Shown: positions 48,973 through 51,900 of the stretch, piece after piece
Numbering within the stretch: the first letter of the stretch is position 1
Layout of the letters: the number at the start of each line of letters is the position of its first letter
Origin: Escherichia coli
GTDB taxonomy: Bacteria > Pseudomonadota > Gammaproteobacteria > Enterobacterales > Enterobacteriaceae
Length of the DNA stretch: 64,000 bases
Reading direction: 5' to 3' (one strand)
Assembly (NCBI RefSeq): GCF_003334785.1
Contig: NZ_QOWV01000001.1
Translations under genes and position numbers: made by a program
The notes under the pieces: model-generated
Database searches by the model: none
What the model saw: only the letters and a program-made list of their open reading frames with translations
Told to the model about the DNA's origin: nothing

Positions 48973-51900
48973 GTCATGCCGATATGAACAACTGCTGCGG
49001 CTTTAACGAGGCTGCCGCAGCATTCTCATGGAACAGCCCGAAAAAGGCCATTAACCCTTATCTGGACCCGGCGGAAGTTGCGCCGGTTTCTACGCTTTCA
49101 AACCTGATCACTCTGTACGCTGCCGATAACGAGCAGGAACAGTTGCGCCGCGAGGCACTGAGTGATCAGGTCTGGGAGCGTTATTTCTTTAATGAATCAC
49201 GTGATCCTGTCCAGCGCGAAATGGAGCAGGATAAGCTCATTAGCCGGGCAAAGCTGGCGCATGAGCAGCAGCGTTTTAATTCAGACATGGTCATTCTGGC
49301 GGACGTCAACGCCCAGCCTTCCCATATCAGCAAGCCGCTGATGCAACGTATTGAATACTTCAGCAGCCTGGGCAGGCCAAAGGCTTATTCCCGCTATTTA
49401 CGTGAGACGATTAAGCCATGTCTGGAACGACTGGAGCATGTACGCGACAGTCAGCTATCTGCATCTTTTCGCTTTATGGCAAGCCATGAAGGGCTGGACG
49501 GCCTGCTGATCCTGCCTGAAATGAGTCAGGATCAGGTGAAACGCCTGTCCACCCTGGTAGCTGCGCATATGAGTATGTGCCTTGATGCAGCTTGTGGTGA
49601 TTTGTATGCCACCGATGACGTTAAGCCAGAAGAAATCCGCAAGACATGGGAAAAGGTGGCAGCGGAAACCCTGCGTCTGGATGTCATCCCACCTGCGTTT
49701 GAGCAACTCCGTCGGAAAAGAAACCGCCGTAAACCCGTGCCCTATGAACTCATTCCGGGTTCGCTGGCGCGTATGTTGTGCGCCGACTGGTGGTATCGGA
49801 AATTATGGAAGATGCGTTGCGAATGGCGGGAAGAGCAGTTGCGCGCAGTTTGCCTGGTCAGCAAAAAAGCATCTCCTTATGTCAGCTATGAAGCCGTGAT
49901 GCATAAACGTGAGCAGCGCCGTAAGTCGCTGGAGTTTTTCCGTTCTCATGAACTGGTGAACGAAGACGGCGACACGCTGGACATGGAGGATGTGGTAAAC
50001 GCCAGCAGCAGCAACCCTGCGCATCGCCGCAATGAGATGATGGCCTGTGTTAAAGGTCTGGAGCTTATCGCGGAAATGCGCGGTGACTGCGCCGTTTTCT
50101 ACACTATCACCTGTCCGTCGCGTTTCCATTCCACGCTAAATAACGGCAGACCAAACCCGACCTGGACAAACGCGACGGTAAGACAAAGCAGCGATTATCT
50201 GGTCGGCATGTTTGCTGCATTTCGTAAGGCGATGCACAAAGCCGGGTTGCGCTGGTATGGCGTGCGGGTGACGAAGGATGCGATGGGAACCATCCAGCGT
50301 GTACTGGAGAAGGTGAACGCACTGCCGCAGGACAAGCGTCTGTCTGCCATGACCATGTTGTTTGGTAAAGAGTTTGGCGATGACGCGGCGAAACTGGCAA
50401 ACAACCTGCCGGAACTACAGCGCCAGCTAAAACTGACAGCGGGCAATGATGCGCTCGGTTCGATGCAGAAAGAATCCGACATCAACAAAGACTCACTTTC
50501 TGCTCAGTGGTTGCTGGTCAAAACCGGAGCGCAGAACACCTTCAGCAGCCTGGGCGAAACGCTGCGCCAGCCGCTGATGGATATTCTGTACACGGTGAAA
50601 AGCGTCACGGGGGCGTTGCGCCGCTGGGTGGAAGCTAACCCGGAACTGACAGGCACACTGATGAAAGTAGTGGCTGTTGTGGCTGCGGTTACCGTAGGCC
50701 TCGGCACCTTAGCGGTGGCGCTGGCTGCAGTGCTGGGGCCGCTGGCAGTGATCCGTCTGGGATTCTCTGTGCTGGGTATCAAAACGTTACCTTCCGTTAC
50801 GGCAGCAGTAACCCGAACCAGCAGCGCGTTGTCCTGGCTGGCTGGCGCACCACTGGCACTGCTGCGACGCGGGCTTGCTTCATCGGGCAACGCCGCAGGT
50901 TTACTTACTGCGCCGTTGTCGTCTTTGCGCCGCACGGCATTACTGACGGGAAATGTCCTGAAAACTGTAGCAGGTGCGCCGGTTGCACTTTTGCGGTCTG
51001 GATTATCCGGTTTACGTGCTGTTGCTGTGATGTTTATGAATCCTCTGGCGGTACTGCGCGGTGGACTGGCCGCCGCAGGCACGGTGCTGCGAGTACTGGC
51101 ATCTGGTCCACTGGCGATGCTGCGCGTTGCCCTGTATGCCGTATCTGGTCTGTTAGGTGCTCTGCTCAGTCCGATAGGTCTTGTGGTTACTGCACTGGCG
51201 GGCGTGGCGCTGGTTGTCTGGAAATACTGGCAACCCATCACCGCATTTCTTGGTGGCGTGGTGGAAGGATTCAAAGCGGCGGCAGGTCCCGTCAGTGAAG
51301 CATTCGAACCGCTTAAGCCCGTGTTCCAGTGGATTGGCGACAAAGTACAGGCGCTGTGGGGCTGGTTTACTGATCTGCTGACGCCCGTTAAGTCGACCTC
51401 TGCCGAACTGCAGAGTGCAGCGGCAATGGGGCGACGATTCGGGGAGGCACTGGCGGAAGGGCTAAATATGGTCATGCATCCGCTGGACTCCCTGAAATCC
51501 GGCGTTTCCTGGTTGCTGGAGAAGCTCGGCATTGTCAGTAAAGAGGCCGCAAAGGCAAAACTTCCGGAAAGCGTGACGCGTCAGCAACCTGCGACGGTGA
51601 ATGCAGACGGTAAAGTGATGATGCCATCGGGTGGTTTTCCATCATGGGGATATGGCTTTGCGGGGATGTATGACAGCGGCGGGTATATCCCGCGCGGGCA
51701 GTTTGGCATCGTCGGTGAAAACGGGCCGGAAATTGTTAACGGCCCGGCAAATGTGACCAGCCGGAGAAATACAGCTGCACTGGCTGCCGTTGTTGCCGGA
51801 ATGATGGGAGTTGCTGCCGCGCCAGCAGAGCTTCCACCGTTGCACCCTTTGGCACTTCCCGCGAAAGGTGGAGAAGCAATTGTGAGTCGCGCAGCCACTG

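Follow-up and report, generated by a model that had tools for sequence, protein, structure and literature searches.

The window considered here, a stretch of 64,000 nucleotides of the Escherichia coli contig NZ_QOWV01000001.1 (assembly GCF_003334785.1), carries on its plus strand, at positions 48969-52073, an open reading frame (ORF) of 1034 codons in which the start of a phage replication gene runs in frame into the end of a phage tail tape-measure protein (TMP) gene. NCBI names its product 'phage tail tape measure protein [Escherichia coli]'. The interval of interest, 50840-51180, lies inside this plus-strand ORF (its first base is two bases off the ORF frame, which is immaterial) and had been described in an earlier note as a series of periodic Ala/Leu-rich repeats. 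The ORF is a deletion remnant of a P2-like prophage: amino acids (aa) 1-434, encoded by 48969-50270, derive from the replication endonuclease gpA, and the part encoded by 50271-52073 corresponds to residues 426-1025 of the 1025-aa TMP of Escherichia phage 500465-1. The explanation that best accounts for the whole, and in which we have high confidence, is that the interval represents the hydrophobic central core of the tail TMP of a P2-like phage (Peduoviridae, Wadgaonvirus-type), left behind in a prophage remnant adjacent to the host gene ybjL.

The two parts of the ORF fall into different protein families. In the PHROG collection, aa 2-434 match phrog_91 ('nicking at origin of replication'; 2.4e-138) and aa 435-1034 match phrog_5690 (5.7e-145) as well as phrog_28 ('tail length tape measure protein'; 1.7e-85). 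The NCBIfam profile TIGR01760 (tape_meas_TP901) recognizes aa 420-576 with 130.5 bits for a cut-off of 28.8, over positions 194-349 of its 349. Pfam, searched with the whole ORF, returned Phage_GPA (PF05840) alone (model positions 1-244 of 321) and found no TMP domain in the TMP-derived part, for the assignment of which it is insufficient and the PHROG and NCBIfam profiles were needed. Beyond gpA and TMP, the fusion protein has no PHROG or NCBIfam match; it was not searched against defence families. At the DNA level, nucleotides 1-1302 of the ORF are 99.8% identical to the gpA gene of phage Cartapus, and nucleotides 1301-3105 are 97.5% identical to the annotated TMP gene of phage 500465-1 (Peduoviridae, Wadgaonvirus), which sits in the usual tail-gene order; some 40 P2-like phages of Klebsiella and Escherichia match the TMP-derived DNA at 96.5-97.5%. 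The earlier note had ascribed the C-terminal part to a TMP, an attribution that it was ready to give up if a profile search returned no TMP similarity; TMP profiles were matched and the attribution stands. It rests on these curated profiles and on DNA identity, that is, on evidence independent of the periodicity. The N-terminal 425 aa of the TMP are absent from the fusion, the profile match beginning at position 194 of TIGR01760, and the window copy is, judging from its sequence, a fragment of a TMP gene that is homologous to TMPs rather than a functional member of the family.

Within the TMP-derived part, there are six matches in the ORF frame to the strict pattern P[LV][AS]x[LI]R, their prolines lying at aa 591, 628, 649, 671, 692 and 714 (nucleotides 50739, 50850, 50913, 50979, 51042 and 51108), which corresponds to spacings of 37, 21, 22, 21 and 22 residues. 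The array is made of a 43-residue double unit (21 + 22), repeated, then of one more 22-residue unit, with a 37-residue copy upstream. On the plus strand, this upstream copy (unit 0, aa 590-626, 37 aa) occupies 50736-50846 and carries a motif that is also kept in Fels-2 and in distant homologues. It is followed by unit 1 (aa 627-647, 21 aa; 50847-50909), unit 2 (aa 648-669, 22 aa; 50910-50975), which is more degenerate, unit 3 (aa 670-690, 21 aa; 50976-51038), unit 4 (aa 691-712, 22 aa; 51039-51104) and unit 5 (aa 713-734, 22 aa; 51105-51170), the last of which runs into a hydrophobic segment and is also found in Fels-2.

This regularity stands out from the composition of the region. Composition-preserving shuffles of aa 580-745 (20,000) contained 0.012 strict motifs on average and at most 2, to be compared with the six observed. 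The BLOSUM62 self-similarity of the protein, a form of the self-comparison that had been proposed for it, peaks at a lag of 43 residues (z = 6.97, where the maximum at any lag in 2,000 shuffles was 4.44), with secondary peaks at lags 21 and 22 (z ~3). A profile of units 1 and 2 aligned by hhalign with one of units 3 and 4 (five homologues per profile) matched it in register over 42 of the 43 columns, with a probability of 95% and E = 3.9e-08. The two 43-residue double units are homologous and the array therefore arose by internal tandem duplication. Tandem Repeats Finder detected no array in the DNA, the duplication being too old for it; the two 129-nucleotide double units are 42% identical. 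All four of the motifs singled out in the earlier note are present and exceed chance expectation; the copies number six, however, and their period is 21/22 residues within a 43-residue double unit rather than the 'roughly 25-30' residues that had been estimated. The four motifs of that note themselves lie 43, 21 and 22 residues apart, and the estimate is explained by its having overlooked the first copy (unit 0) and the degenerate unit 2. We note that four public entries homologous to window positions 50634-51281 (P0153, P0160, P0190 and P0208) change reading frame and render the repeats out of frame, with a 49-residue string, or close variants of it, that also appears when the window is translated off frame; these off-frame entries are probably frameshift errors or pseudogenes in a GC-rich stretch.

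The array is not shared by TMPs at large. Wphi gpT (P2-type, 815 aa) has none of the motifs and, between conserved flanks, a purely hydrophobic core of 89 residues. Fels-2 gpT (935 aa) has the first and last motif copies only, 37 residues apart, and is missing exactly 86 aa (2 x 43) of the array, or four units; at the gap it reads TRTGSVLRLLISGPLALLRVAL, a blend of the ends of units 0 and 4 such as an in-register deletion between repeats would leave. The motif is all but missing from 70 diverse full-length homologue representatives (up to 57% identity), in which the flanks W[VI]xxNP...(LGP) and KYWxPIxAFxGG enclose unrelated sequences of anything between 81 and more than 250 residues. The TMP repeats of the literature are of another kind, with units of 11 or 18 residues marked by Trp or Phe, and are found in about 5% of TMPs (PMC5099701). 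The sequence comparison thus indicates that the array is not a general TMP signature, and the statement that such periodicity is characteristic of TMPs has to be withdrawn.

The same layout of 37, 21, 22, 21 and 22 residues is conserved in several other proteins, among them one of Salmonella (76% identity) and one from a Shewanella metagenome (57%); the search with the repeat segment returned mainly short fragments and frameshifted ORFs and was useful for a handful of diverged arrays. Each unit is usually closest to its positional counterpart in the Salmonella and Shewanella homologues, not to its neighbours, from which it follows that the duplications predate the divergence of these lineages. 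The duplication is old, and the DNA similarity between units is gone. Given that the flanks of the Fels-2 protein are nearer to those of the window (80-87% aa identity) than are the Shewanella flanks (55%), the short form of Fels-2 is most simply read as a later in-register loss, i.e. as a secondary deletion, with the mosaicism of phage genomes as a caveat.

The units share a consensus, drawn from 27 complete units of seven proteins, of a-P-L-x-x-L-R-r-G-x-a-x-x-G-n-x-L-x-x-L-x(-x), in which P2, L3, L6 and R7 are near-invariant and positions 3, 6, 10, 13, 17 and 20 hydrophobic. The composition (L 18%, A 15%, V 11%, G 10.5%) is Ala/Leu-rich, as had been reported. Hydrophobicity along aa 627-734 has a period of 3.6 residues (P = 0.0005 relative to shuffles), and since the mean unit length of 21.5 residues corresponds to six alpha-helical turns (21.5 / 3.6), the hydrophobic positions and Arg 7 remain in phase on one helical face. 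Each unit thus appears to be a basic amphipathic alpha-helix of some six turns. A strict heptad coiled coil was rejected, power at a period of 3.5 residues not being significant (P = 0.18), as was a glycine zipper, considered after PMC10240207: Gly is conserved at positions 9 and 14, but inspection of the units disclosed no GxxxGxxxG run.

On either side of the motifs lie the hydrophobic helices noticed earlier, Kyte-Doolittle 19-residue windows above 1.6 being centred on aa 569-596 and 723-745. The first membrane-anchor-like segment (aa 567-595; 50667-50753, plus strand) has a Kyte-Doolittle peak of 2.51 and a summed insertion free energy of -0.75 kcal/mol; the second (aa 720-751; 51126-51221, plus strand), delineated by the same two scales, is followed by the conserved flank. 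The insertion scale, a simple, position-independent one that serves as a rough guide and whose values are reportedly those of Hessa et al. 2005, falls below 1 kcal/mol solely at aa 567-590 and 731-750 and assigns +4.8 to +10.8 kcal/mol to units 1-4. Units 1-4 would accordingly not be autonomous membrane spans, and would be flanked by two segments that are. The whole lies in a stretch of 206 residues devoid of Asp and Glu (aa 560-765; 50646-51263, plus strand), and 17 Lys/Arg are found in the 211-residue span aa 550-760. AlphaFold2, run on aa 540-790 with an alignment of 31 sequences, predicted helix throughout, with a predicted local distance difference test score (pLDDT) of 50-60 in the repeats and a predicted template-modelling score (pTM) of 0.27. 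Like other TMPs, the region is thus predicted to be mainly alpha-helical with membrane-like hydrophobic segments (aa 567-595 and 720-751).

What the array does in an intact phage may be considered in this light. TMP segments predicted to be transmembrane or amphipathic have been implicated in an inner-membrane channel, with T4 gp29 as an example (bioRxiv 10.64898/2026.03.06.709160; PMC10240207). We tentatively favour, as a possibility that falls somewhat short of being probable, that the array is primarily part of the membrane-active region of the TMP: the module would leave the tail tube as the DNA is delivered and insert at the inner membrane, and, given that TMP length sets tail length, would also add about 86 aa to the ruler. 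Several points weigh against this proposal. Units 1-4 are too polar for classical membrane spans, so that a membrane role would require oligomeric or potential-driven insertion. P2 works with an 89-residue core free of repeats, which makes the array dispensable for the basic job of a TMP. The scores of the AlphaFold2 model are good enough to support 'helical' but not to tell hairpins or bundles. Finally, no solved structure covers the array, the best Protein Data Bank match (E = 0.044) being the TMP of Anabaena phage A-1(L), of which only the last ~20 residues are modelled.

A somewhat less likely alternative is that the units are pure ruler modules in an extended helical bundle, in which their Arg residues would contact an acidic tube lumen and their copy number would tune tail length. 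TMPs do set tail length, and in TP901-1 the deletion of repeats or of the first hydrophobic region shortens the tail (PMC5099701); myophage TMPs are helical bundles in the tube lumen (PMC10966104). That natural variants differ by exactly 86 aa, and that a mean unit of 21.5 aa makes about six turns with its hydrophobic and Arg positions on one face, would suit such modules well. At ~1.5 A per residue, however, 43 aa span ~65 A and 86 aa ~129 A, neither of which is a whole multiple of the 36-A ring rise of a myophage tube (PMC10966104), an arithmetical comparison that borrows the tube of another myophage. The position of the array, exactly between two anchor-like segments and in a region of hypervariable length, is also a poor fit to a strict ruler. 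We note that the ruler and the membrane role are not mutually exclusive. No morphology paper giving tail lengths was found under the genus name Wadgaonvirus, as judged by titles and abstracts.

A further proposal, to which we give slightly less credit still and which we consider rather unlikely, is that the 43-residue double unit, as a pair of basic amphipathic helices, is a previously undescribed modular core element of a subset of P2-like TMPs, gained or lost in register (86 aa fewer in Fels-2, none in P2), the number of copies of which would adjust the length of the tail or else the length and geometry of a trans-membrane DNA conduit. If this were true, the modular reading would provide a natural variant series with which the hydrophobic core of a myophage TMP could be tested. 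The hydrophobic core of P2-like TMPs is hypervariable in length, one lineage having built it by in-register duplications of 43 residues, and the natural 0 and +86-aa variants could be used to set tail-length counting against membrane penetration.

More doubtful is the idea that the units are iterated sites for the tail assembly chaperones (gpE and gpE+E' in P2), shielding the hydrophobic TMP before the tube polymerizes. Hydrophobic TMP stretches have been linked to chaperone binding (PMC5099701), and the gpE/E' pair is encoded directly 5' of the TMP gene in intact relatives; P2 and Wphi, however, have the chaperones without such repeats.

Whichever of these roles applies to an intact phage, the repeat module cannot operate in the window, the N-terminal 425 residues of the TMP and the remaining tail genes being gone. 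The junction between the two parental genes is a TG dinucleotide at 50269-50270 of the plus strand, common to both (gpA ...GCGGGTG^GCT; TMP ...GCAGATG^ACG), and the two sequences overlap at this TG only. An internal deletion, roughly of the 20-kb class and with this TG as microhomology, fused codon 434 of gpA in frame with codon 426 of the TMP. The gpA part ends in ...YGVRV, directly before the HUH-type motif (HWH) AEPHHDGTVHWH of the intact gene, and is not a complete gpA: the HUH motif, the tyrosines of YIAKY (YxxxY) and the ori homologue (about nucleotide 2025 of the intact gene) are all deleted. The nick site of the P2 ori, annotated at codon 620 of gene A, maps ~720 nucleotides past the breakpoint, so that the ori was lost as well. 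A nick-site hotspot, at which the gpA nickase would have mediated illegitimate recombination and which was considered in view of the identical gpA breakpoint in strain EC05, was ruled out as the origin of the breakpoint on the same grounds, the nick site (codon 620, about nucleotide 2025) lying ~720 nucleotides away.

Downstream of the junction the phage genes are intact and in the order of intact phages, with gpU (52070-52555), gpD (52552-53652) and ogr (53710-53961) together occupying 52070-53961 of the plus strand directly 3' of the fusion ORF; the host gene ybjL follows ogr on the minus strand. Upstream are dam, early-operon genes, a Cox-like protein, the repressor, a defence gene and the integrase. 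The gpE/E' tail chaperones, which intact relatives possess, have been deleted here together with the tube, sheath and baseplate genes. The fusion ORF is thus a deletion-fused pseudogene in a decayed P2-like prophage, in frame by happenstance.

It is very unlikely that this in-frame gpA'-'TMP fusion has instead been co-opted, for instance as a membrane-active protein expressed from the early operon in exclusion or abortive infection. The frame is kept across the junction and the overlapping start/stop arrangement with dam and gpU is retained, but one junction in three would be in frame by chance. The identical fusion protein is found on 13 public contigs, copies that probably go back to a single strain lineage, and 5,426 complete E. 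coli genomes contain no instance of the gpA/TMP junction. The remnant still holds a repressor, an integrase and a defence gene of the PD-Lambda-1 family; against this, other E. coli strains have remnants at the same ybjL site, many of them with deletions that end at differing points in the same TMP gene, a pattern like that of random decay. For annotation, the 1034-aa ORF is better treated as a deletion-fused pseudogene, gpA'::'T, than as a tape-measure protein.

Among these other, independent remnants (loci L002, L008 and L009; proteins P0001-P0049) are portal'|'TMP joins in APEC O78 and strain 11PC and a V'|'TMP join in EC05. About 30 public ORFs combine a foreign N-terminus with the C-terminal part of the TMP, with joins between aa 533 and 978; 15 of 31 such joins are located in the repeats and the second anchor (aa 627-751), a count in which assembly frameshifts and true deletions are not separated. 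In E. coli EC05 (L002 4014-4030, compared with window positions 50262-50273), gpA is cut at the identical nucleotide and its partner is the lysB/lysC region (...GCGGGTG|ACGCCGTG). Both right-hand partners have TGACG at the join, the intact lysis region reading GCGAGTGACG and the intact TMP gene GCAGATGACG. An EC05-like ancestor may have undergone a further deletion between TGACG repeats; alternatively, the breakpoint may be a recurrent one.

The defence gene of the remnant is a minus-strand ORF of 558 codons (43675-45351), located between the integrase (42540-43592) and the repressor (45372-45968), both of which are also on the minus strand. Its product matches the anti-phage defence family PD-Lambda-1 (PADLOC E = 6.6e-120; phrog_1847 7.6e-133), and it lies in a patch of low GC content (37% over 44001-46000). 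The decayed prophage thus retains a defence gene, apparently intact, in addition to its integrase and repressor. A further observation concerns the reference record of phage 500465-1: NC_049342.1 ('Escherichia phage 500465-1, complete genome') contains at 29456-39179 the host genes smpB, ratA, bamE, recN, nadK, grpE and ffh together with an insertion sequence (IS) fragment, and its gpA gene is split across the ends of the record. The record is an excised prophage region with host flanks rather than a clean phage genome; its TMP gene is intact.

The TMP-derived part is crossed on the minus strand by an ORF of 342 codons with an ATG start (50504-51532), which exists as the earlier note had described it and which that note had put down, rightly in our view, to the composition of the sense strand. 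Antisense codons cover sense positions 3-1-2, so that the wobble positions coincide in both frames, and an antisense stop can arise only where a sense Tyr codon is preceded by one with T or C in its last position, or where a codon for His or Gln is preceded by one with T there. Tyr, His and Gln make up 11 of the 344 residues of the span (3.2%, vs 9.4% in the gpA part), and it is their rarity that leaves the antisense frame open. When the protein was held fixed and synonymous codons were drawn from local usage (2,000 trials), the median longest open antisense stretch was 302 codons; it reached at least 342 codons in 39% of trials and was centred on the same span in 99%. Shuffles of codon order reached 342 codons in 1%.

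That the antisense ORF is nonetheless a real overlapping gene is extremely unlikely, its length, its ATG start and the openness of the same frame in close and distant relatives (385 codons in phage 500465-1, 257 in Fels-2 and 246 in Wphi) having to be set against a simulation in which so many random recodings open an equal stretch in the same place. Differences relative to Fels-2 fall on sense codon positions 1/2/3 in the proportion 35/21/127, and the ratio of synonymous to non-synonymous codon changes is 105:43 when the sense frame is read, as against 80:65 for the antisense frame. The substitution-pattern test is a low-powered one, there being 19 differences in the span relative to the 97.5%-identical phage and a shared wobble position; owing to the latter, substitution patterns cannot by themselves exclude dual coding, a point that counts against dismissing the ORF and for which the synonymous-recoding simulation took the place of the test. 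The antisense product has no PHROG or NCBIfam match, its exact sequence is absent from ~15 billion predicted proteins, no gene is called at the span in annotated relatives, and direct reading of the sequence upstream of the ATG disclosed no Shine-Dalgarno-like sequence. The antisense ORF is a by-product of sense composition, not a protein-coding gene, and should not be called in annotation.

That the periodicity itself is due to chance, or to the low complexity of a sequence rich in Ala, Leu and Gly, has a negligible probability: the region is compositionally biased and the repeat undetectable in the DNA, but the excess of strict motifs, a lag-43 peak above all 2,000 shuffles, the in-register profile-profile match and the unit-by-unit conservation in homologues at 55-76% identity all speak against it. 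The repeat finding is an ordinary one, namely an old, lineage-specific internal duplication in a well-known family, inside a dead prophage gene, and none of the results challenges current understanding.

The closest known systems are the 1025-aa TMPs of phage 500465-1 (Wadgaonvirus) and Klebsiella phage 4LV2017, which are 96.4-98.2% identical to the window in DNA across the repeat-bearing region, have an identical repeat layout and are followed, as in the window, by gpU, gpD and ogr. The window copy differs from them in that it is devoid of residues 1-425 and fused to a gpA fragment, with no chaperone, tube or sheath genes. The gpT proteins of Fels-2 and of P2/Wphi are more distant relatives, with homologous flanks and the boundary motifs W[VI]xxNP...LGP and KYWxPIxAFxGG in common; they differ in the core, which in Fels-2 is 86 aa shorter with two motif copies, and in Wphi/P2 contains no P-L-x-x-L-R motif.

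The TMPs of siphophages such as TP901-1, lactococcal p2 and the mycobacteriophages likewise have internal tandem repeats, the copy number of which alters the length of the protein and presumably that of the tail. The window array does not belong to this class: its unit is 21/22 (43) residues, not 11 or 18, its markers are Pro, Leu, Arg and Gly with no aromatics, and it sits in a hydrophobic core between anchor-like segments, not in a soluble helical part. A likeness of another order is offered by the transmembrane segment and amphipathic helical-bundle domain of the T4 TMP gp29 and by the two hydrophobic regions of the TP901-1 TMP, which are all-helical, as is predicted for the window array, and in which a predicted membrane segment goes with amphipathic helices that have been proposed to form the inner-membrane channel. 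In TP901-1, two hydrophobic regions flank 129 aa (PMC5099701), and the anchors of the window flank ~135 aa that are basic, acid-free and amphipathic. No detectable sequence similarity to either protein was established. The H tube of PhiX174, the DNA pilot protein, is not homologous and has polar, Gln-rich repeats in contrast to the hydrophobic, Ala/Leu/Gly-rich ones of the window. By analogy only, H offers the example of an alpha-helical DNA conduit built of heptad and hendecad repeats, which includes a membrane segment and whose lumen is faced with amide and guanidinium side chains (PMC7354561), and the window array, too, would present periodic Arg residues on one helical face.

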